DNA of 15,947 nt from a virus (IMGVR_UViG_3300045988_112536:1-15947); one strand, 5' to 3'; positions 5,137-15,947 are shown, numbered from the stretch's first letter. The notes: generated by a model not told the origin, from the sequence alone. Numbers and translations: made by a program.

Positions 5137-5157
5137 AGGGGAGCATTGCACTCCCCT
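5137..5157 (-). other. GC-rich stem-loop between capsid and tail-knob genes
   Basis: AGGGGAG (5137-5143) pairs with CTCCCCT (5151-5157) around a 7-nt loop. It lies between the palindrome copy at 5166-5185 and the tail-knob SD. No U-tract follows it. Confidence 0.4.
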
Positions 5158-5165
5158 CAAAAATC

Positions 5166-5185
5166 AATGTTTCACGCGAAACATT
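5166..5185. repeat. Palindrome copy 1 (AATGTTTCACGCGAAACATT; one central substitution relative to the other copies)
   Basis: It lies directly 3' of the major capsid stop codon (5186-5188). In the minus-sense transcript it is followed by UGAUUUUUG. Confidence 0.9.
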
Positions 5186-6463
5186 TTACTGGTTGACTGT
5201 GACAGTACCTGTTCCGCTGATCGTGCTATCATATCTTGACGTTGCTTTGACCGTAAGTGTTGCAGCTTTCTCATCATTTGCAATATGCAAGATATTCGAC
5301 CCCGGAATAAAACCTGTATACTGGCTTGTCGCGCCCTCTACGTCAAAATCGAGCATTTGCGGCGTGTACTGGCTGTCTCCGGTCACTAACGCTGTAATCT
5401 CCACATCAGTTCCCGCATTTCCGGCGGTATCTGTAACGCTTACGGTTGTAAGACCGACCGTATCTGTCGTAAAAACAATGCACGGGAAAAAAGGAGAGTA
5501 GGAAAACATTTCACTCATAGTGTAAAAGTAGTTCCATGTCAGCGCCGCGCCGTTTCTCGAATCGGTCAGTGTCCGGAAATTCTCACGTACATTAAAAAAT
5601 CTCATATCAAACAGCGCAAGCTTGATATTGGGGTCGTCAAACTTGTCAATGATAATTTTGCGGACATTGATGTCAACTTTATCCATATTAAAGGCTGTTG
5701 CAAGCACTTCAACATCTAACTCCGCGTCAATTTCCGGCGTTGTGATATAAAAGATTGTCTGATCGTTTGCGCAACTGTCTGCTCCGGCAATGTTGTACTC
5801 GGGATGGGGAAATTTCATCTGACCGATGTAAGCCTTTACAAGCTTTGTCAGCTTCTTCGCGTTTTCTGCGCTCGCTGTAGGGTCTGCAACATTGACCGCA
5901 TAGAGCTGATCTGCCGCGCTCGCGCTCTCAATCAGACGTTTCATACACAGATATTCATCCCAATTTGCCGCCGCAAAAAGACTCTGTACTTTTGCATTTA
6001 TTAAATCGCGCACGCCATATTCCGACTGGAACGCTGTACGCAAGTTGTCAAAAGTGACTGTAACCGCGTACTGGATAGCGGGTGTGATCTTGTGATACGC
6101 CGCCATGACACTTGACTGATAGTAGGCATACAGTTCTGCAACGGTTGCGAACTGATTAAACTGCTTACCTTTTGCCATGTTGATAAAAATTTCTTCCTCC
6201 GTGCCGCCGTAACGCATCGGATCTCTCTTAAGTACTCCAAGGGGATTTTCAAAAAAGACTGTCTCGATTCTCTGCTCCATAATCTGTTCTACTAATGCAT
6301 TAGCGAACGCATTTCGCAACGGAACGATGTTCAGCAAACTTTCGTAGATACTCGAGATATTCTCTGCTGTTGCTTCCGGTATTCTGTTCTGATACTCCAA
6401 ACTCTGCATAGATCTTATTGCGTTTAAAATGGCTACGTTCGTAGCCGGAACTTTGTTACCCAT
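5186..6463 (-). CDS. Major capsid protein (phi29 gp8-like) with C-terminal Ig-like (BIG2-type) domain, 425 aa from ATG 6463
   Basis: ATG 6463 is preceded by GAGAGGAG just after the scaffold stop codon. DAELDVEVLATAFNMDK matches phi29 gp8 EAELDVDVLAKAFNMNR. The C-terminal ~90 aa are beta-rich (VTDTAGNAGTDVEITALVTGDS...TLTVKATS...GTGTVTV), like the gp8 Ig-like domain. Confidence 0.9.
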   Translation of the reverse strand: MGNKVPATNVAILNAIRSMQSLEYQNRIPEATAENISSIYESLLNIVPLRNAFANALVEQIMEQRIETVFFENPLGVLKRDPMRYGGTEEEIFINMAKGKQFNQFATVAELYAYYQSSVMAAYHKITPAIQYAVTVTFDNLRTAFQSEYGVRDLINAKVQSLFAAANWDEYLCMKRLIESASAADQLYAVNVADPTASAENAKKLTKLVKAYIGQMKFPHPEYNIAGADSCANDQTIFYITTPEIDAELDVEVLATAFNMDKVDINVRKIIIDKFDDPNIKLALFDMRFFNVRENFRTLTDSRNGAALTWNYFYTMSEMFSYSPFFPCIVFTTDTVGLTTVSVTDTAGNAGTDVEITALVTGDSQYTPQMLDFDVEGATSQYTGFIPGSNILHIANDEKAATLTVKATSRYDSTISGTGTVTVNQ

Positions 6464-6476
6464 TTTTTCTCCTCTC

Positions 6477-6767
6477 TTACTCTGTACTGCCGTCAAAGTC
6501 AAGCATTTCCGGCGTTACATCTTCTACCACGCCAACATCTGCTTTTGGCTCTTCGATGTCTGCTTTCGGTGTTTCCTGTCCCGCCAACATTTCGCCAAAT
6601 CGCGCAATGTACTTTTCGCGCAAGCCCTCATAGCGTTCTTTGTAGCCGTCGTCTGTTACATTTGCGCCGCTTCTGATAGATTCTGTAATCACATTGATTT
6701 CTTCGTCCAATTCTTCCGGCGCTTCGATCTTTCCCAAGATCGCTTTTAAAGCTTCGTCTGCTGTCAT
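6477..6767 (-). CDS. Scaffolding protein (phi29 gp7-like), 96 aa
   Basis: It is small, very acidic, predicted helical and sits immediately upstream of the major capsid gene. Size is similar to phi29 gp7. ATG 6767 is preceded by AGGTAGG. Confidence 0.7.
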   Translation of the reverse strand: MTADEALKAILGKIEAPEELDEEINVITESIRSGANVTDDGYKERYEGLREKYIARFGEMLAGQETPKADIEEPKADVGVVEDVTPEMLDFDGSTE

Positions 6768-6771
6768 TCTT

Positions 6772-7920
6772 CTACCTACCTTTCCCTAAAAATGATTTTA
6801 AATAATATATAAAAGGTGTTTTTCTAGCGCTTGGAATAGGCGCTACACCAGATATATTGATTGTACATTCTTGGTAAATATTTGTATCACTTAATACAAA
6901 AAAACGAATAATTACACGTCGCAATGCTGTAGCGTTTACTTTGATATAGCAATAACCTCTTTCTTTTTTAACAAGTTCCACACCGTTCGGCACATCAACA
7001 CCCCAATCATAAGTAGATCTTACATTAAACCTAACTACAGTCCCAACATTTGCTTGCTGACTGTAGGGTGTAACGTTAATTTCCGGTGCGGGTGGCGCGG
7101 GTCTGTTTATGCCAATCTGGCATTGTGCTGTAACGCTCTGGCTATCAAGCAACCAAAAGTTTACAACGCTTGTAACTTGCGCACCGTTTGCATTTCCGCT
7201 AACAATCAACGCATTATCTTCTTTTGTTGCTGTTAAATACTGACCGATGTTATAAGTCCATTCCGAGTTAGCATTAACAGTAATTCTAATGTTTTCCCCA
7301 TCTACTATACTAGCACTAATAGGGTCTATTGTCAGCACTTTTATTTCCGGCGGTAGATTACCATGCATATCATCATAGACAGACATACTGCAATTATAGC
7401 GGTACTCTTGCACGTCTTCTCCTTGTAAAGTTGGGTTTTCAAAATTTTTTAGAACGTAAGTACTTGCCGCCCGCATATCTGTAGCATTTTGCAAAACTTC
7501 GAGCGTATTTGCGAATGAAGTTTGTAACTCATAACTCAAGTAATAGACGGCTAACTCAACGCTACCGATACTACCATAACCACCGTTTTTCCAAGCATCA
7601 TAATATCCGGCTTTTCGCGTGTACCAAGTCCATTGTGCTAAACCGTAACCTTTGTGATCTCTGTCTCCATCAAGTCCGCTGTTAATAAATTGATCTCTGG
7701 TTATAATACCACTATCGACATTATTAGTATAAATACGACTCCTGTTAAAAAAATTTGTACTGTTGTTATCATTTTCACATCTGTATGGTACAATTCCACT
7801 TTCCGCCCACAAGTTACCAAGCAAAGCCGCCAACCCTATTTCGTTGTTAATTAAATTATACAACCCGTTCCAAACTGCTCTTGTATAACCGTAGTTTACA
7901 TAATCTGATTCCGTATTCAT
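6772..7920 (-). CDS. Peptidoglycan hydrolase with phage tail-lysozyme-type N-terminal domain and two beta-rich (Ig/cell-wall-binding-like) C-terminal repeats
   Basis: LLGNLWAESG ... GYGLAQWTWYTRK matches the phage tail lysozyme pattern (catalytic E in the ESG context, GLAQWT). ATG 7920 overlaps the ATPase TGA stop (TGATG coupling). Two ~80-aa beta-rich repeats are separated by RPAPPAPE. It could be the tail-associated lysin (phi29 gp13 role) or the endolysin. Confidence 0.75.
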   Translation of the reverse strand: MNTESDYVNYGYTRAVWNGLYNLINNEIGLAALLGNLWAESGIVPYRCENDNNSTNFFNRSRIYTNNVDSGIITRDQFINSGLDGDRDHKGYGLAQWTWYTRKAGYYDAWKNGGYGSIGSVELAVYYLSYELQTSFANTLEVLQNATDMRAASTYVLKNFENPTLQGEDVQEYRYNCSMSVYDDMHGNLPPEIKVLTIDPISASIVDGENIRITVNANSEWTYNIGQYLTATKEDNALIVSGNANGAQVTSVVNFWLLDSQSVTAQCQIGINRPAPPAPEINVTPYSQQANVGTVVRFNVRSTYDWGVDVPNGVELVKKERGYCYIKVNATALRRVIIRFFVLSDTNIYQECTINISGVAPIPSARKTPFIYYLKSFLGKGR

Positions 7921-8972
7921 CACATTAACCTCACACTAAGTATATCAAGTACAATATCCTTACACTTTAAATCCTTAAATCTTAACAATCCTAAGTCATA
8001 AGACCGTTTAAGATAGTCGTAGATAAAAGTCTGACTACTCAACATCAAAGTATCGGCGTCATGACTGCTCGCGTCAAACGTAAAGCGATATTTACAACTA
8101 TTGTCAACAGTTCTGTCAATATACACAATACCTTTTTCTGGGTATTCTCTGACCGCATAATTATCTTTTCCACAAACTAGCGTAAATATATAACGGCTGT
8201 TTCCGCTAATACTTTCCACAAAAGCGCTTGCATCACATAGATATACACCATCGGCGCTACTCTTCTGATACTGGCTATTTTTAAACACTTTTGCAAATTT
8301 GCTTTCATTCATAGCATTTTGTGCGTCTTTGTTAATAACAAATTGTGCAACCCATCCATGCCCACGCAAAAAATTAGTGTTATCCCTTAACCTTTTGTGT
8401 ATTCCAAAATATATAAAATACGGATTTAAAAGTGTTACATAATTTGCCATTAAATAAGTTGGTACTTCTCGTACCTGTTTCCCTTTACCTCTACAGATCG
8501 TTCTCAACGTACTTTCAAACTTTGTTATCTCATTTTTTAAATATCCATTATTTTCAAGCACAAATTCATCAAAAACGATCAAACTAACGTCTTTAAACAT
8601 TGGGCTGTACTTTTTGAGTTTATCGGTATTATTAAAATATACCGCGTATCCAAGTAGCACAACGTTATCATCTTTATCATGTAGCATCATTGCACTGATT
8701 AGTCCTTTTACAATGCTTTTATTAGTCACAACTTTTCCATACTCGGGGTAAATGTCCAGTACATCTTCATACATTTTTCCACTGCTCGATATTTCATCCT
8801 GTGTTCTGTATAAAAAAACAACTTGCTTATCATTCTGCACATTTTTTAAAGATTCAATCAAAAGCGCTGTAGTCTTTCCGGCGCTACGATTTCCGATAAT
8901 CATTCTTAAAATCGGTTCTTCGTTATCCAAGTCTTTTACATTTTTTATACTATCAAGATTGTAATAAGACAT
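7920..8972 (-). CDS. DNA encapsidation (packaging) ATPase, phi29 gp16-like, 350 aa
   Basis: Walker A is IIGNRSAGKTT and Walker B is LIVFDEF. LLNPYFIYFGI parallels phi29 VVNPYFLFFNL, GIVYIDRT parallels GLMYIDTA, and C-terminal LLRFKD parallels YLRFDN. ATG 8972 is preceded by GGGGGAAA. Confidence 0.9.
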   Translation of the reverse strand: MSYYNLDSIKNVKDLDNEEPILRMIIGNRSAGKTTALLIESLKNVQNDKQVVFLYRTQDEISSSGKMYEDVLDIYPEYGKVVTNKSIVKGLISAMMLHDKDDNVVLLGYAVYFNNTDKLKKYSPMFKDVSLIVFDEFVLENNGYLKNEITKFESTLRTICRGKGKQVREVPTYLMANYVTLLNPYFIYFGIHKRLRDNTNFLRGHGWVAQFVINKDAQNAMNESKFAKVFKNSQYQKSSADGVYLCDASAFVESISGNSRYIFTLVCGKDNYAVREYPEKGIVYIDRTVDNSCKYRFTFDASSHDADTLMLSSQTFIYDYLKRSYDLGLLRFKDLKCKDIVLDILSVRLM

Positions 8973-8987
8973 TACGTTTCCCCCAAA

Positions 8988-9056
8988 CTAGCACGGCGGG
9001 AATCGAACCGCGCTATAAAGTCAAAATCTACTGTTCTCCCTCTGAACTACGCGCCA
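8988..9056 (-). tRNA. tRNA-Gln(UUG)-like gene with a non-canonical variable/T region
   Basis: Manual fold of the minus-strand sequence. Acceptor stem is UGGCGCG / CGUGCUA (7 bp, 2 G-U). U8A9 follows, then D stem GUUC/GAAC with loop AGAGGGA. Anticodon stem is GUAGA/UUUAU with loop UU-UUG-AC. T loop is UUCGAUU and the discriminator is G. U1-A72 plus G73 fits bacterial tRNA-Gln identity. Only 19 nt lie between the anticodon stem and the acceptor 3' strand, so the T stem needs a bulged C or a 4-bp/8-nt-loop form. No CCA is encoded. Confidence 0.55.
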
Positions 9057-9060
9057 ATAA

Positions 9061-9076
9061 TGTTTCACGTGAAACA
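9061..9076. repeat. Palindrome copy 2 (TGTTTCACGTGAAACA, perfect 16-mer)
   Basis: It lies between the holin stop codon (9081-9083) and the tRNA 5' end (9056). Confidence 0.9.
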
Positions 9077-9080
9077 CTTC

Positions 9081-9410
9081 TTATTTTTTCGGTGCTTTCT
9101 CCAAGATTTCTCTAATCTTTTCCGGCACTAAGCTTTTATTTATCCGGCTTACATTTTCCAAAATACTGCCGATTTCCATTAAAATAATATAAACGCAAAT
9201 ACTCTCGAGCACCGGAACGCTAAAGCCCATATCAAGAAAACTCTGCCCGTAGTCAATCAAAAACCCAACAGCCACAATGACGATTTCGCCGAACTTGTTA
9301 AAAAGTCCGTCACGCATCACACTGCTGTTAAAATTACTTTTTTTAACTGCCATAACAATTCCGGTAATAAAATCAAGCGCAATAAACAACATTACAATTA
9401 CAATAGTCAT
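9081..9410 (-). CDS. Holin (phage_holin_4_1 / TcdE-like family), 109 aa from ATG 9410
   Basis: ATG 9410 is preceded by AAAGAGGAG; the ORF-track start at 9440 is a non-ATG extension. There are three hydrophobic helices. DFITGIVMAVKK ... ILMEIGSILENV resembles the family pattern D.iTGi..A ... nE.lSIlEN. The C-terminal tail is charged. Confidence 0.85.
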   Translation of the reverse strand: MTIVIVMLFIALDFITGIVMAVKKSNFNSSVMRDGLFNKFGEIVIVAVGFLIDYGQSFLDMGFSVPVLESICVYIILMEIGSILENVSRINKSLVPEKIREILEKAPKK

Positions 9411-9749
9411 TTTTTCTCCTCTTTTCTGCAGCGGTAGCAATTAACAGAATTACCGCCGCATTGATAGTTTTTTAGAGTTTCGCGGTATCGGCTCGCACCA
9501 ACCACGGCGCGGGGCACGGTTTTCCCCGTCGGTTTACGCCCACAAAAACCAATCCGGTACTACTCCACACACTCCAATTACTCGGACATAGGACATTTCG
9601 TAAGGAATTTAGTAATTGAAGTGTGTGCAATAGTACCATATAAATTATGTTTTATGCCATGTACGGCAAGCCATGCCGCTCCATGCCGTACATGCCATAA
9701 ATGCCATTTCTACGCCGTACAATGCCGTGAATGGCATTGCACGGAGATC
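9411..9749 (-). ncRNA. Long structured, locally GC-rich noncoding region; candidate ncRNA (pRNA-like?) and/or late regulatory region
   Basis: No SD-led ORF is present. Hairpins lie at 9428-9459 (9 bp), around 9500-9545 (CGGGG/CCCCG and GGCG/CGCC), 9556-9637 (7 bp + 3x3 internal loop + 17 bp), 9654-9698 (11+3 bp) and 9715-9744 (12 bp). Three stems each contain one position that is G-U on the minus-sense RNA but A-C on the plus-sense RNA. Confidence 0.4.
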
Positions 9750-10148
9750 TTACCGATTAAACGGATTGTACGGCTCTGCCGGAACAAGCTTTGAAATGTC
9801 AATGCCCTTGAGGTATGCGCTCTGGTACTTCTTGCCCTTGTACTTACCCTCAACAACCTTGAACGCAATTTCTACTTCGGAATCAGCACCGATCTCTTCC
9901 GCCTTAATTGCTGTCTCGTCGTCCGGTTTCTGTTCAACGCCGTCAAGATAAATGGGAAAGTCGAACTGGGTGTGTGCCTTTACAAGCTTTGTGCCGTCAT
10001 CGGAAATCTTTACCGGACAGTCAATCTCTGTGTTAAGACCAGCTTTTTCGATCAGCGCCGCCGCGGCGTCGTCTGTGATCGCTACCATAATGGAAAACTT
10101 TCCGTCGTTGGAAAATGCGGAATATACTTTACCTGTTGCGTATAACAT
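9750..10148 (-). CDS. Early protein, possibly an ssDNA-binding (OB-fold, DUF2815-like) protein, 132 aa from ATG 10148
   Basis: ATG 10148 is preceded by AAAGGAG. The N-terminal ATGKVYSAFSNDGKFSIMV pattern, its size and its place in the replication module are compatible with a phage SSB (phi29 p5 is of similar size). The functional call is weak. Confidence 0.5.
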   Translation of the reverse strand: MLYATGKVYSAFSNDGKFSIMVAITDDAAAALIEKAGLNTEIDCPVKISDDGTKLVKAHTQFDFPIYLDGVEQKPDDETAIKAEEIGADSEVEIAFKVVEGKYKGKKYQSAYLKGIDISKLVPAEPYNPFNR

Positions 10149-10201
10149 AATTTTTTTCTCCTTTTCTGATTTGAATTTGATTGATGTGTAATAACGCAAG
10201 C

Positions 10202-10219
10202 ATGTTTCACGTGAAACAT
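10202..10219. repeat. Palindrome copy 3 (ATGTTTCACGTGAAACAT, perfect 18-mer)
   Basis: It is intergenic, 25 nt after the stop codon of the 93-aa gene and 53 nt before ATG 10148. Confidence 0.9.
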
Positions 10220-10244
10220 TTTAAAGTGTTGCTTGCTGTGATCT

Positions 10245-10526
10245 CTACTTCTTTGACGCTTTGTAGGCATCATACTCTTCTGCTGTCATTGAATTCTCAA
10301 TGAACGTAGACAACGGCATAAAGCGGGTTTCCTCTTTACGGGCAACCTCAATCAGATTACCCTTTGCAATACCGAAAGACGCTAAAATCTCGTCTCTCTC
10401 CGCCGCTGTAGTAATTTCATGATCCCATTCTACATGGTCTCCCATTTTAATACCATCTTCTGGCGATACCGTCATAATCTGGTATAATACTTTTGTTGGG
10501 ATAGTTCTGGAAATTACCTTTTCCAT
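10245..10526 (-). CDS. Hypothetical early protein, 93 aa
   Basis: ATG 10526 is preceded by AAGAGAGGAAA. I recognise no motif. Confidence 0.75.
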   Translation of the reverse strand: MEKVISRTIPTKVLYQIMTVSPEDGIKMGDHVEWDHEITTAAERDEILASFGIAKGNLIEVARKEETRFMPLSTFIENSMTAEEYDAYKASKK

Positions 10527-10621
10527 TTTTTGTTTCCTCTCTTTCTTTAAATAATGTAGCGAAACTGAGTAGCTTATTATAGCTTGCCATCGTCAGACTG
10601 TAAGTTGCTATCTTTTCAGTG

Positions 10622-10642
10622 ACGGGAGAGTGTTTCTCCCGT
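10622..10642 (-). other. 8-bp GC-rich stem-loop after the 87-aa gene
   Basis: ACGGGAGA / TCTCCCGT with a 5-nt loop, starting 8 nt after the stop codon at 10650. No U-tract follows on the minus-sense RNA. A weak promoter-like TTACAG-16-TATAAT lies downstream of it. Confidence 0.3.
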
Positions 10643-10649
10643 TTCGGCT

Positions 10650-10913
10650 TTATCTGAAAAATTCTGTTTTATGAAATTCCCTGTCTACATAGAAATTAAT
10701 ATAACCAACTTCTTCCGCTTCTACTAAACGTCCAAGATCTTTGTTCGCTCTTCTTGTAACTCTGATAACATCGTATACTTCTGTATTCGGTTCTTCAAAC
10801 GATGAGTAAATACGGTCTAAGTAATATGTGTGAGTTGAATTTCTATAACACGTTTCGCTTTTTTCAACTGCTTGCGTAAGCTTGTACTGGGTATCTGTTG
10901 ATATTCTTACCAT
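10650..10913 (-). CDS. Hypothetical early protein, 87 aa
   Basis: ATG 10913 is preceded by AAGTGAGGAAA and sits downstream of the promoter at 10966-10994. Confidence 0.75.
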   Translation of the reverse strand: MVRISTDTQYKLTQAVEKSETCYRNSTHTYYLDRIYSSFEEPNTEVYDVIRVTRRANKDLGRLVEAEEVGYINFYVDREFHKTEFFR

Positions 10914-10965
10914 TGCGCTTTCCTCACTTTCTTGTGCTTTGTTATTTGTTTTTTCTTACATGATT

Positions 10966-10994
10966 ATAATATCATGTTTGGTCTATTTTGTCAA
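10966..10994 (-). promoter_or_regulatory. Sigma-A-type promoter (TTGACA-17-TATTAT with TG extension)
   Basis: On the minus strand, -35 TTGACA is at 10994-10989, the spacer is 17 nt, and -10 TATTAT is at 10971-10966 preceded by TGa. It overlaps the stop codon of the 58-aa ORF. Confidence 0.75.
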
Positions 10995-11167
10995 GCTAAA
11001 ATTATATAATTACTAGCAAAATGTTTCACTTCTGATTTTGCGTATTTTACTACTAATGTTATAAGCTCTTTGCTTAATTCAATGCATTTTCCGTGTGCAT
11101 TAAATATACAGATTTTTTCATCCCCTATCCACGTGTCATTGGCGTCGTAAAGTTCTGATACTGTCAT
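10991..11167 (-). CDS. Small hypothetical early protein, 58 aa (not in the ORF track)
   Basis: ATG 11167 is preceded by AAGAGGGGAAA directly after the stop codon of the 69-aa gene. My translation is MTVSELYDANDTWIGDEKICIFNAHGKCIELSKELITLVVKYAKSEVKHFASNYIILA. Confidence 0.6.
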   Translation of the reverse strand: MTVSELYDANDTWIGDEKICIFNAHGKCIELSKELITLVVKYAKSEVKHFASNYIILA

Positions 11168-11184
11168 GTTGTTTCCCCTCTTTC

Positions 11185-11394
11185 TTAAAATTCCATGAAG
11201 CTTGCTAATCTCGATTTATTCAGTGCAATACTATCATCTATTAACTGATTAACAACATTCAATACATTTTCCATTTTAGCGTAAGGAAATGCACCGCCAA
11301 TATAGAAAAATATTGACCCACCAAAAGGGCTTAAATTATTTTCTTTCATGTGTCTTTTTGTAAAATCGTAAATTTCTTTTTCTTTCTTTGTCAT
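11185..11394 (-). CDS. Hypothetical early protein, 69 aa
   Basis: ATG 11394 is preceded by AAGTGAGGAAA and sits downstream of the promoter at 11450-11477. Confidence 0.75.
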   Translation of the reverse strand: MTKKEKEIYDFTKRHMKENNLSPFGGSIFFYIGGAFPYAKMENVLNVVNQLIDDSIALNKSRLASFMEF

Positions 11395-11449
11395 TGTGTT
11401 TCCTCACTTTCTGCTTGTTTTATTGTTTTGTAACTTCCTTACATTATCT

Positions 11450-11477
11450 ATTATACGCTTATTGCCGGAAATGTCAA
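11450..11477 (-). promoter_or_regulatory. Sigma-A-type promoter (TTGACA-16-TATAAT)
   Basis: On the minus strand, -35 is at 11477-11472 and -10 at 11455-11450. It is followed by the conserved leader AGATAATGTAAGGAA...CAGAAAGTGAGGAAA. Confidence 0.75.
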
Positions 11478-11537
11478 GAAGTTTTTTCTAAAATTTTAAA
11501 CAATTTAAAATTGTTTCTTTTATCTCAAGGTTAGCAT

Positions 11538-11678
11538 CTATAACTTCTGGGTTGATAATCCAAGTCCTTCTAATAAATTACATAACCATAGTCCGTTATA
11601 AATCATGTGCAAACTAATTTTATCATCAACCACCATTTTCAGCACTGCATACACAGCTTCTTCTTTGCTTATTTTCAT
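11538..11678 (-). CDS. Small hypothetical early protein, 46 aa (not in the ORF track)
   Basis: ATG 11678 is preceded by TGGAGGT 9 nt upstream. My translation is MKISKEEAVYAVLKMVVDDKISLHMIYNGLWLCNLLEGLGLSTQKL. Confidence 0.5.
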   Translation of the reverse strand: MKISKEEAVYAVLKMVVDDKISLHMIYNGLWLCNLLEGLGLSTQKL

Positions 11679-11693
11679 ACTATTGTACCTCCA

Positions 11694-11868
11694 TTATTTC
11701 CACTCAACTGGAATTTTAATAATTTTCCATCCGCCGTATGCTTTTGTTGTGTCCAGATATTTAATAGGCAATCGCGCCACATTTCCAAAATCTTCTAATA
11801 CATATCTGTAGTTTTTGGTGTCAACTGTACCATTCTTTTTTTACCTTTTCATAAAACGATCTTCTCAT
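11694..11868 (-). CDS. Small ORF interrupted at an A7 tract (possible +1 frameshift, homopolymer error or pseudogene)
   Basis: ATG 11868 has an excellent SD (AAGTGAGGAAA) and promoter but stops after 15 codons at 11821. The +1 frame stays open from the A7 tract (11836-11842) to TAA at 11694-11696 and has no ATG of its own. Confidence 0.3.
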
Positions 11869-11912
11869 GTTTATTTCCTCACTTTCTTGTACTTTGTTTC
11901 CTTACATTATGT

Positions 11913-11941
11913 ATTATACCTATGGTAGTTATATATGTCAA
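11913..11941 (-). promoter_or_regulatory. Sigma-A-type promoter (TTGACA-17-TATAAT)
   Basis: On the minus strand, -35 is at 11941-11936 and -10 at 11918-11913, immediately after the polymerase stop codon. It is followed by the leader ACATAATGTAAGGAA...CAAGAAAGTGAGGAAA. Confidence 0.8.
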
Positions 11942-11945
11942 GCAT

Positions 11946-14093
11946 TTATTCGCAATTATCTATAAAATTTTTTCCTATGATTTCTGAATACTCGTCTGTA
12001 ATGCCTAAAGTGTAAGTTGTATCTACTATAGCTATATTTGACGCTGTTGTAAATGTTGATTCTTTACCTAGATAATCTGTTATTGTTATCGAATGTATGT
12101 TCGATTCATTAAAATAAGACACGGTGCGTCCAGAATCAGTAAATAACTTTCCAATTTTAAAATCATAAATACCATTTCCGCGCTCTAACTCTGCCGCACC
12201 TTTTTGCTTTGATAAGCCGGACACAGTAACATGTAACTTGTTATCTTTGCTATCTATGTATGCGTACTTTTTTGCACCTAGCGTCTTAAATTTTTTATAA
12301 TTACCGTCGTCATCCCATATCCCTAAATAAAAACGCGTTGCAGTGCCATCCTCATTTTGACGGTCTGCATAATTGCGATAACGTTGTTTTTTTGCTAATA
12401 AGTAATCATTGCGGTCTTTAAAGATTTGTAAATGCTGTTTGCCTATAAATTTTACACTATCAGTATCTGCATAAACAAAATCCCACCCAACAGCATCTAT
12501 CATCTTTTGCAACTCCCACCGTGCATTAGCAGTAATATATACCCCCCATTGATAAAGCAAAAATGAATTTTTTGATGTAGAATACTGTGCTATTGATTCT
12601 ATTAAATCCGGTGTAACTTTAGACCATTCGCCATTATCGTAAACTATTTCATCGTGACATATGTCTGTAACCATTGTACCAAAAACAGAATTTAAGCTGT
12701 TTTTACTTTTCATATACTCATATTCTTTTCCTTTTATGTCCTTAAGCTGTGTTTTTTTGTCGTAAAACTCTAACATAGTGCTTACTATTGGCGCGGGCAA
12801 ATAATCTTTTTTCGCCATGTAACCGCATATCCACTCTATACCATCAAAATGATATTGATTGCATATAATGATAAAGTCTAGTTCCGTGCAAGCATAGGTT
12901 ACCCATTCAGCAGATAACACGCGCCCGTTGTCGTTTATATACTCTTTACTAAATGATACACAATGCGCAAAGTCTATATATGGCACTGTAACATCGTCAT
13001 GTACTGTTATAGACTTGAGTGTTACTTGCATAATGATAGCGTTTTGTTTTTTGTTACAATCAGATAATAGTTGTGTAAAGTTTTTTGGTATATACTCTAT
13101 AAACGGTGTCATAGGGTATAAATCTGAACATATACATGATGGATAACTTGACACTCTATCCATACTGTAAACGTTGTCTATGATTGCGTCTGCATAATAT
13201 CTGCTAGCATGTGTATTTCCTCCGCGAAAAGCTTTTCGCAATAGTGTATATACTTCAGGCGTAGGCATTAGACTTTCGAATAATTCTCTGTAATTTCCGT
13301 CCGCTCTGCAAGCTTTGCGCATTTCACGACGAACATATCCGGTCGATGTTAGCGGTATTGTTGCTAATGTGTCATTATAATCATCCATTTTTGACAGTAT
13401 GCATTCTTCAAGTCCTTTTACATCGTTATAATCATATGCTAACTCTGTTCCTGTTTGTGGTGTGTCTGGTGTCCGTACTTTTTTATAATCATATGTGTCT
13501 ACTAATTTTCGATGAATACAAAATTTTGAATTTTCGCAAAACTTTGATAAACTCATATTCGATAAAAAATATGAACATCTAAACTCAAAATGAGGGAATG
13601 TTTCACGTGAAACATCTAGCCTATTTACTGTTTTTAGATAATCAGATTTTAAACAAGCATTGAATTTTATGACCTTATGGGATTCTCGTGCAAAAAGTGA
13701 TACTATATAAAAAAAATCCTTTACAAACATAAATTCATAAGCTAAATTATGGACATAAATGACTAATTGTTTTGATGCTGATAATTCCAAGTATTCTCCT
13801 AGTTTACGTAGAAACTTAGTAAATTCTTCCCACCGTGTTCCAAAACAAACATTTCCTTTGTAACAAAACTGCCAATGGTACATAAATGCATAAGGTTTTT
13901 CGCTGTTTATTGTTGTAGTTTCTATATCAAATGTTGCAGGGCTATCTATATAAGCAATAGCCCTTTTTCCTTTTTTTCTGACTGTAGTATAATTCCAATT
14001 TATTGCGTTATATGGATAATCGTATACTGTGTAAACTGTTTCATTTTTTGTATATTCTTTCCCTTTTTCCGTGTAAAATGTTTGTACTACCAT
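11946..14093 (-). CDS. Protein-primed family-B DNA polymerase, 715 aa
   Basis: Exo I is FDIETTT, Exo II is HNLAYEF and Exo III is YDYNDVKG. Motif A is MDRVSSYPS (DxxSLYPS), motif B is KSKNSLNSVFG (Kx3NSxYG), motif C is YADTDS and KxY is GAKKYAY. Genome ITRs fit protein priming. Confidence 0.95.
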   Translation of the reverse strand: MVVQTFYTEKGKEYTKNETVYTVYDYPYNAINWNYTTVRKKGKRAIAYIDSPATFDIETTTINSEKPYAFMYHWQFCYKGNVCFGTRWEEFTKFLRKLGEYLELSASKQLVIYVHNLAYEFMFVKDFFYIVSLFARESHKVIKFNACLKSDYLKTVNRLDVSRETFPHFEFRCSYFLSNMSLSKFCENSKFCIHRKLVDTYDYKKVRTPDTPQTGTELAYDYNDVKGLEECILSKMDDYNDTLATIPLTSTGYVRREMRKACRADGNYRELFESLMPTPEVYTLLRKAFRGGNTHASRYYADAIIDNVYSMDRVSSYPSCICSDLYPMTPFIEYIPKNFTQLLSDCNKKQNAIIMQVTLKSITVHDDVTVPYIDFAHCVSFSKEYINDNGRVLSAEWVTYACTELDFIIICNQYHFDGIEWICGYMAKKDYLPAPIVSTMLEFYDKKTQLKDIKGKEYEYMKSKNSLNSVFGTMVTDICHDEIVYDNGEWSKVTPDLIESIAQYSTSKNSFLLYQWGVYITANARWELQKMIDAVGWDFVYADTDSVKFIGKQHLQIFKDRNDYLLAKKQRYRNYADRQNEDGTATRFYLGIWDDDGNYKKFKTLGAKKYAYIDSKDNKLHVTVSGLSKQKGAAELERGNGIYDFKIGKLFTDSGRTVSYFNESNIHSITITDYLGKESTFTTASNIAIVDTTYTLGITDEYSEIIGKNFIDNCE
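13598..13615. repeat. Palindrome copy 4 (ATGTTTCACGTGAAACAT, perfect 18-mer) inside the polymerase ORF
   Basis: It is identical to copy 3. It lies in-frame within the polymerase, encoding DVSRETF, between the Exo II and Exo III motifs. Confidence 0.9.
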
Positions 14094-15605: not shown

Positions 15606-15634
15606 ATTTTAAACCTACTATATAAAATTGTCAA
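15606..15634 (-). promoter_or_regulatory. Sigma-A-type promoter (TTGACA-17-TAAAAT), the rightmost promoter of the genome
   Basis: On the minus strand, -35 is at 15634-15629 and -10 at 15611-15606, 22 nt inside the right ITR boundary and 44 nt upstream of the amidase ATG. Confidence 0.75.
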
Positions 15635-15656
15635 CCAGAACTTTTGTTCATGTATG

Positions 15657-15947
15657 AGTTATCCACATCGAACAAGTGTTCGTGCTAGACGGACTAATGG
15701 TGTCCGTCTACCGCGGACACTGTTTTTTCGTGTTGTGTGAACAACTTTGAAAACTCGTTGAATTGTCTGAAAACTTAAAAATCAATATGCATTATGCACA
15801 AAGATTTAGTCGATCTTTGTGCATTTTTGTTATTGACAAATTGGAATAGATCAACTTTTAGGTAGCGAATTTAACATCTGATTTATCGAACGTATGTTTG
15901 TCTTTTTGGGGAAAACAGTGTCCGCGCTACACGGACTATGTAACTTT
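15657..15947. repeat. Right inverted terminal repeat
   Basis: It is the exact reverse complement of 1-291. It carries mirror copies of the terminator hairpin (15794-15833, facing outward) and of the ITR repeat motifs. Confidence 0.95.

Follow-up and report, generated by a model that had tools for sequence, protein, structure and literature searches.

A 15,947-nucleotide stretch of viral DNA, IMGVR_UViG_3300045988_112536:1-15947 (the window, by which we mean this whole stretch), carries four copies of a 16-bp palindrome, TGTTTCACGTGAAACA, that is identical letter for letter to the consensus chromosomal parS, the sequence at which ParB/Spo0J nucleates. The window is the genome of a phi29-like, protein-primed podovirus. 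Judged by their sequence, the repeated palindromes are very probably host-type parS and functional ParB sites. The best explanation of the whole is probably that the phage carries parS and hijacks host ParB for segregation or spore entrapment, and we lean towards entrapment in spores or daughter cells as the pay-off of the sites.

Three of the copies are perfect, at positions 9061-9076, 10203-10218 and 13599-13614, and a fourth, at 5168-5183, has a single central mismatch (TGTTTCACGCGAAACA). Beyond these four, a search tolerating up to three mismatches finds no other match to TGTTTCACGTGAAACA in the window. A dinucleotide shuffle gives 0.14 expected copies, and four or more were reached in none of 200 shuffles, which confirms the original prediction, made from the sequence alone, that the repeat is not random; the perfect and one-change copies that it had located were all re-found by the mismatch search. 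The motif had been described there as an 18-mer, and this longer form, ATGTTTCACGTGAAACAT, is perfect at 10202-10219 and 13598-13615 and matches at 17 of 18 bases at 9060-9077. An isolated half-site had also been singled out. It exists, at 11022-11029, as the sole extra TGTTTCAC in the window, but with 0.86 expected its count is close to chance and needs no explanation.

What the original prediction missed is the identity of the motif, which it had compared only with the CRP/FNR, Rex, cre, TnrA and LexA sites. Binding of ParB to parS, followed by CTP-dependent spreading as a clamp, is established for chromosomal ParB. Work on the specificity of ParB and Noc quotes the ‘consensus parS site (TGTTTCAC-GTGAAACA)’, which was used for structural work on ParB, and TGTTNCACGTGAAACA describes the palindromic, highly conserved parS found on the chromosomes of most bacteria and across most phyla (PMC7022226). 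When tested against TGTTNCACGTGAAACA, three window sites match at 16/16 positions and one at 15/16. In a literature text search, the papers quoting the 16-mer concern ParB/parS, among those examined. The Noc-binding site, TATTTCCCGGGAAATA, has no match in the window at up to three mismatches, and the motif is thereby ruled out as a Noc site. Gut Clostridia (for example Blautia, Enterocloster, Flavonifractor and C. innocuum) have ParABS together with 1-10 consensus parS clustered at the origin (PMC10197239), and the parS count of the 16-kb phage is about that of a whole bacterial chromosome. Chromosomal parS are origin-proximal and lie beside parAB, whereas the window sites lie on a complete phage genome with no par genes; the phi29 sites, likewise, are neither origin-proximal nor beside parAB.

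The four sites, to which no strand is assigned, occupy quite specific places. Site 1 (13599-13614) is perfect over its 16 bp and falls at codons 160-165 (VSRET) of the DNA polymerase gene, where the polymerase copy reads NRLDVSRETFPHFE and the peptide ...DVSRETF... covers codons 160-166. The gene that hosts it encodes a protein-primed family-B DNA polymerase (11946-14093, minus strand; PHROG 1907, E = 6.5e-52; Pfam DNA_pol_B_2). Site 2 (10203-10218), also perfect, is intergenic, between a gene of 93 amino acids (aa; stop at 10245) and a 149-aa open reading frame (ORF; 132 aa from the ATG at 10148). Site 3 (9061-9076), the third perfect copy, follows the holin stop by 4 nt and precedes by 3 nt the 5' end (9057) of a tRNA-Gln(UUG) gene directly downstream of it (8987-9057, minus strand; ARAGORN; Rfam tRNA, 42.8 bits). 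Site 4 (5168-5183) has its one mismatch at a specificity position and sits 2 nt past the stop of the phi29-type major capsid gene directly upstream (5186-6463, minus strand; Pfam Phi29_MCP, E = 1.1e-75), before the tail-knob gene. At the capsid/tail knob, holin/tRNA and 93-aa gene/next gene junctions the distance from stop codon to site is thus 2-26 nt, and the contexts are as first described, with three copies 3' of stop codons and one in the polymerase.

Strong purifying selection acts on the three perfect parS sites. A scan of IMG/VR with the polymerase recovered 73 related loci, and the window's own clade comprises 33 genomes with polymerases 67-99% identical. Three parS places are common to all 33, at polymerase codon ~160, upstream of the 149-aa ORF and at the holin/tRNA junction. 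Column identity, computed among distinct sequences and anchored on the sites, is 0.98 in parS at site 1, compared with 0.74 in the left flank and 0.78 in the right; the corresponding values are 1.00, 0.69 and 0.68 at site 2, and 1.00, 0.88 and 0.58 at site 3, where identity rounds to 100% over a single one-base variant (in L126). Site 1 lies inside a non-conserved stretch of the polymerase alignment, and the conservation of parS in this gene extends to synonymous positions. In a sub-clade at 71% polymerase identity the polymerase flanks are unalignable and the 16-mer of site 1 is still perfect. Because the 16-mer is kept without its flanks in a variable stretch of the polymerase, the peptide is not what is conserved, and this bears out the earlier suggestion that selection acts on the nucleic acid and not on the polymerase peptide. 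Site 2 is retained in three genomes with unrelated sequence on both sides, and site 3 is kept in many genomes whose downstream tRNA gene was replaced. A search in related phages had been proposed as a check on the motif, and it finds the motif at homologous places in 33 of 33 genomes for these three sites. It does not do so for the capsid-junction copy, which is kept at up to two mismatches in only 9 of the 33, is absent in four and is broken in many relatives by a one-base insertion (ATGTTTTCACGCGAAACAT). ParB binding at site 4 is doubtful, because the mismatch hits a position that distinguishes parS from the Noc site.

Perfect parS sites also recur in many other phi29-like lineages. A clade at ~44% polymerase identity carries two, one at polymerase codon 18 and one directly before a 379-aa ORF, and a clade at ~41% carries three to four directly after stop codons, including those of capsid and tail genes, while a further locus (L165) has a perfect parS at polymerase codon 640. 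A parS following the capsid gene, as at site 4, is also seen in distant clades and in Clostridium phage HM2. Altogether the related IMG/VR loci hold ~130 perfect parS in 0.95 Mb, compared with ~4e-4 expected from base composition (~4e-10 per position), and 80 further relatives from GTDB assemblies, mostly bins of gut metagenome-assembled genomes (MAGs), hold 12 perfect and 12 one-mismatch parS in 0.80 Mb. Natural parS tolerate change at half-site positions 1 and 5 (PMC7022226). The one-mismatch variants of related phages, of which TGTTCCACGTGAAACA is the commonest, fall at half-site positions 1, 5 or 8 in 30 of 47 distinct cases and are uncompensated on the other arm, and the phage sites thus vary at the outer base and position 5 as parS sites do. 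Across IMG/VR at least 120 viral contigs, with G+C contents of 30-72%, contain the exact 16-mer, and many contain it more than once. Of the 166 perfect sites on those contigs, 61% are preceded by A and followed by T, and the 18-mer described earlier therefore reflects a general preference.

Some of these occurrences differ in arrangement from those in the window. Distant phi29-like contigs from MAG bins carry parS inside their terminal repeats, ~20-40 bp from the genome ends (L233 at 22-37 and 13931-13946, L231 at 38 and 11249, L251 at 8), where the sites adjoin the start of protein-primed replication. Unrelated IMG/VR contigs of 50-72% G+C have three to five perfect parS within ~1 kb (L021 2657-3444, L061 10535-11462, L073 240-961 and L088 276-910); such arrays are probably plasmid-like prophage centromeres, or origin-proximal chromosome fragments mis-called as viral. 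The Clostridium perfringens phage phiCPV4 (L283) has seven parS-like sites, three perfect and four with one mismatch, all of them within four intergenic gaps (4812/4838, 7846/7871, 9949 and 11824/11849), and six form tandem pairs spaced 25-26 bp start to start. This phage also encodes a SpoVG-like protein, and its genome paper makes no mention of parS, Spo0J or Spo0A. A phage of this kind has been known since 2005 from phi29; new here are the perfect conservation over a large uncultured human-gut clade, the varied positions across lineages and the abundance of sites in phiCPV4.

The window encodes no recognizable protein to bind these sites. Searches against PHROGs, Pfam, NCBIfam and PDB sequences give no ParA, ParB, SopB or helix-turn-helix (HTH) match in any ORF and yield only the expected replication, lysis and structural families. 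In a shared-protein comparison covering phi29, Nf, MG-B1, HM2, CS229P2, phiCPV4 and distant metagenomic clades, the parS-bearing phages have only the polymerase, the packaging ATPase and virion proteins in common with the window, and no small early protein. As no phage-encoded binder is shared, the common denominator is a host protein, for which the sequence of the motif names ParB, and a phage with neither ParA nor ParB would borrow those of its host.

Among cultured phi29-like phages, parS is associated with hosts that form endospores. We surveyed 18 such phages, counting parS at up to one mismatch; the genomes are few and related, and the result is indicative only. Sites are present in 8 of 12 phages of endospore-formers, namely phi29 (4), Nf (2), MG-B1 (2), HM2 (1), CS229P2 (1), CI461P2 (1), CI644P6 (1) and phiCPV4 (7), compared with 0 of 6 phages of non-sporeformers, whose hosts are S. 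pneumoniae, S. aureus, Curtobacterium, Arthrobacter, Rhizobium and Salmonella. The hypergeometric P for zero positives among six is 210/18564 = 0.011, for genomes that are phylogenetically non-independent. S. aureus and actinobacteria have ParB and parS themselves. The same holds for S. pneumoniae (PMC7022226), and the contrast is therefore not simply one of presence of the host system.

For the window phage itself, megablast finds no near-identical cultured phage. Its polymerase is closest, among cultured phages, to those of Clostridium phage HM2 (45%) and of two Amedibacillus phages, AD70P2 and AD70P3 (41%). Its exact capsid protein is found on ~15.8-kb human gut metagenome contigs (ERZ918182 / PRJEB9576). 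Among cellular proteins the closest homologues of the endolysin are from Lachnospiraceae and Roseburia (~53% identity), and among phage proteins they are from phages of Anaerostipes, Dorea and C. difficile, which is a weak hint of a clostridial, Lachnospiraceae-type gut host. A GTDB scan with a polymerase profile returns distant relatives only (up to 43% identity), almost all of them in bins of gut MAGs, a setting in which the assigned taxonomy cannot be relied on for phage contigs.

On this basis the following course of infection can be proposed. After injection, dimers of host ParB (Spo0J) would bind the three perfect sites and, probably more weakly, the fourth. ParB would close as a CTP-dependent clamp and spread over a large part, or the whole, of the 16-kb linear genome, and the phage DNA would then resemble an origin-proximal partition complex. 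Together with the region around the host origin, the phage genome would be handled by the ParA/Soj-SMC segregation machinery and, during sporulation, by the origin-capture machinery as well. A genome whose lytic growth is delayed would in this way be delivered to the forespore or to daughter cells and survive there until growth resumes. For this phage and its gut host, we infer both the spreading of host ParB and the entrapment.

Several observations weigh against this proposal. In the clade to which the window belongs, site 4 is degenerating, and about one-quarter of the related metagenomic loci have no parS. The Spo0A box TGTCGAA has no occurrence in the window, where 1.9 are expected, and the relaxed form TGNCGAA occurs eight times, where 8.5 are expected, with none near the predicted promoters; hence no device for suspending lytic growth is visible. 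Phages GA-1, PumA1, KonjoTrouble and CPS1 infect endospore-formers and have no parS at up to one mismatch, the host-association survey is small and phylogenetically non-independent, and that the host of the window phage forms endospores is only a guess. It is also striking how near the sites lie to stop codons and, in one case, to the 5' end of a tRNA, which could hint at an additional role at the RNA level. This closeness is explained, however, by the scarcity of non-coding space and by the TGA contained in one parS reading frame, the other two frames forcing VSRET or FHVK. As for the phages and loci that go without parS, they indicate that the device is optional.

The sites could be true parS and yet serve host manipulation, if ParB/Spo0J were titrated from the origin by hundreds of replicating phage genomes with 3-4 sites apiece, or if SMC were recruited. 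Soj/ParA, DnaA and Sda might then be de-regulated, with sporulation blocked or delayed; host chromosome segregation might be perturbed; or SMC might compact or resolve the phage DNA. The sequence evidence is shared with the partition reading and cannot separate the two. B. subtilis parB mutants are sporulation defective and over-replicate (PMC7022226), ParB/parS loads SMC (PMC7022226, PMC10197239), and the missing Spo0A boxes, leaving no device for lytic suspension, fit a purely lytic use. However, one to four sites per genome make a weak sink unless copy number is high, and the only experimental precedent, phi29 as summarized in PMC2731898, points to prespore segregation; we hold titration to be unlikely. 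A bolder version makes the sites an active weapon, in which ParB-CTP clamps and SMC are loaded on the protein-capped linear genome, the host origin is drained, and segregation and the Soj/Spo0J sporulation checkpoint are reprogrammed. The cell could in that case be kept vegetative until lysis, or a compartment for phage replication and packaging could be organized, and the sites after the capsid gene and before the tRNA would reflect ParB occupancy coupled to read-through transcription. We regard this, too, as improbable.

The remaining readings do without ParB, and each had been offered in the original prediction. If the palindromes were RNA hairpins, they would act as weak attenuators, as processing sites (for example in tRNA 5' release) or as 3' stabilizers. 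With all genes on one strand every site is transcribed, and three lie shortly past stops and one just before the tRNA, but a terminator scan calls none of the four, and at site 1, inside an essential ORF, termination would be harmful. Each site folds into an 8-bp hairpin, as any palindrome does; the folds are unremarkable, with only two to three G-C pairs in the stems. Downstream of site 4 come UUGAUUUUUG and a G+C-rich hairpin that is conserved, but site 4 is the only one with a U-rich tail, and the 3' tails are dissimilar. The ATGTTT/AAACAT arms persist in relatives with an insertion-broken site 4, whereas one-mismatch variants break the pairing without compensation, and the ACGU loop is as invariant as the stem, which a structural element would not need. 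As the identical 16-mer is, moreover, found in phages of 27-72% G+C and in both transcription contexts, we consider an RNA hairpin very unlikely as the explanation and the attenuator proposal as not upheld. The 16-18-mers might instead be short homology patches for recombination between co-infecting relatives. Site 3 does show all four combinations of two left-flank and two tRNA types (L121-L151, L174), and discordant flanks (one at least 93% and the other at most 80% identical) are seen there in 21% of genome pairs, compared with 8% at site 2. However, 16 control anchors, conserved 16-mers of the same variable region, reach 12-19%, and the polymerase site has 0% discordant pairs. Junctions at two sites are thus no commoner than at other conserved islands, any of which would be expected to recombine as a by-product, and the exact parS match and the convergence of unrelated phages stay unexplained; a function in module exchange therefore seems highly improbable. 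As to an operator at which a dimeric regulator encoded by the phage would set the timing of early and late transcription, palindromes of 16-18 bp are typical of such regulators, the sites stand at functional module junctions, and the phage has several small ORFs without known function. None of these ORFs matches an HTH or other DNA-binding family, however, the sites do not overlap the strong sigma-70-like promoters (10.5-12 kb and 15.6 kb), the motif-bearing phages share no non-structural protein besides polymerase and packaging ATPase, and the motif matches to the letter the site of a host protein that is ubiquitous. The operator of a phage regulator is accordingly the reading to which we give almost no credence. 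As first put forward, the idea had allowed for a phage or a host regulator acting as a temporal switch; its host form, a dimeric DNA-binding protein, came closest to the truth, and the switch finds no support.

The ends of the window are perfect 294-bp inverted terminal repeats (1-294 and 15654-15947), which mark it as a full-length linear genome of 15.9 kb, presumably replicated by protein priming. These repeats are far longer than the 6 bp of phi29 and hold internal hairpins, for example at 12-36/222-246 and 112-135/143-166. Every gene is on the minus strand, and PHROG, Pfam and ARAGORN searches identify the gene set as that of a phi29-like protein-primed podovirus. It comprises an Amidase_3 endolysin, two small ORFs, the family-B DNA polymerase, a run of small ORFs, the holin and the tRNA-Gln; a gp16-type encapsidation ATPase, a tail lysozyme, the Phi29_MCP capsid and a gp9-type tail knob; and a connector, a lower collar and two tail or unknown proteins. 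An Rfam search of the window returns the tRNA only and no packaging RNA (pRNA). Strong sigma-70-like promoters are predicted near 15.6 kb, and others cluster between 10.5 and 12 kb; none adjoins a palindrome. On the minus strand they fall in the regions 10570-11945 and 15606-15634, with TTGACA-17-TATAAT at 11941-11913 and others at 11477, 10994, 10604 and 15634. These consensus or near-consensus promoters suggest two early transcription starts. The window promoter scan predicts none ahead of the late structural genes, which may be expressed by read-through.

Other elements of the sequence lie beside the sites or elsewhere in the genome. What fills the tRNA slot past site 3 differs between genomes: tRNA-Gln(UUG) in the window and several relatives, a suppressor tRNA whose anticodon UUA reads the stop codon UAA in one relative (L148, 6164-6236), and a tRNA-like gene without an ARAGORN assignment in two more (L121, 5956-6025; L143, 6718-6787). 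This variability may be related to stop-codon use or recoding in host or phage. Between site 4 and the ribosome-binding site of the tail-knob gene lies a G+C-rich hairpin, GGGGAGCATTGCACTCCCC (5138-5156), which has no U tract and is kept in relatives even where parS has decayed or gone; it may be an RNA stabilizer or a translational element. Site 2 is flanked asymmetrically by a 7-bp inverted repeat, GCAAGCA ... TGCTTGC (10196-10202 and 10230-10236), one arm of which touches the site while the other is 11 nt off. The repeat is conserved in most relatives, and its arms form an outer stem in the RNA fold of site 2. A 42-bp tandem repeat (two perfect copies and a diverged third) at 1416-1524 lies inside a 283-aa gene with weak matches to tape-measure-type tail-protein families.

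Among the abundant Firmicutes of the human gut, many pass from person to person as spores. If parS does serve to entrap the phage genome, spore-riding by centromere display would explain how strictly lytic phages persist and are transmitted with their hosts, and the interpretation of gut viromes would be affected, with phage DNA inside ethanol-resistant spores. The presence of parS on a phage without par genes would then be a sequence marker of lifestyle that narrows the hosts to ParB-bearing and probably sporulating ones. Given perfect parS at differing positions in many uncultured phi29-like lineages and in phiCPV4, the phi29 trick would not be confined to Bacillus.

The closest known system is phi29 itself, for which PMC2731898, summarizing Meijer et al. 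2005, gives five parS sites, a part for Spo0J in carrying the genome into the prespore, and Spo0A boxes at the main promoters. Our own scan of phi29 finds four TGTTTCACGTGGAACA sites and one three-mismatch site. Like the window, phi29 and Nf are small protein-primed phi29-type podoviruses that have no par genes of their own and carry several copies of the host parS, and the window thus shares with phi29 the combination of host-type parS and a lytic podovirus lacking ParB. Copy numbers are similar (four and one weak in phi29, two in Nf, three and one weak in the window), and in phi29, as in the window, the sites lie partly in genes and partly just past stops, the phi29 site at 17243 being directly after gene 16. 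The positions are not homologous, however, and the window sites are the perfect palindromic consensus, whereas phi29 uses the B. subtilis variant TGTTCCACGTGAAACA. The window also differs from phi29 in having all its genes on one strand and no Spo0A boxes, and in coming from the human gut, probably from a clostridial Firmicute, and not from Bacillus.

With the bacterial ParB(Spo0J)-ParA(Soj)-SMC system the window has in common the identical 16 bp, an equal tolerance of mismatches and the clustering of sites within the reach of ParB spreading. In contrast to the chromosomal system, its sites are on a virus and not beside oriC, have no adjacent parAB and belong to a 16-kb linear protein-capped replicon. 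Phage-borne centromeres that ensure inheritance by daughter cells are also found in P1 (ParAB-parS) and N15 (SopAB, with dispersed sopC-like centromeres), which are temperate and encode their own ParA and ParB acting on their own, unrelated centromeres. The window resembles N15 in having its centromere sites scattered over the phage genome, but unlike P1 and N15 it uses the host's site and has neither par genes nor lysogeny genes; a partition cassette of the P1/N15 type is ruled out by the lack of any ParA, ParB or SopB match among PHROGs, Pfam, NCBIfam and PDB sequences. A further parallel is the mobile element SGI1, which, by the account of it in PMC10954446, uses the parABS of IncC plasmids and is, like the window phage, an element without a full partition system of its own; it is stabilized by centromere-binding machinery encoded elsewhere, as the window phage would be. 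On that account SGI1 is an integrative element exploiting a helper plasmid, whereas the window phage would be a lytic phage exploiting the system of the chromosome.

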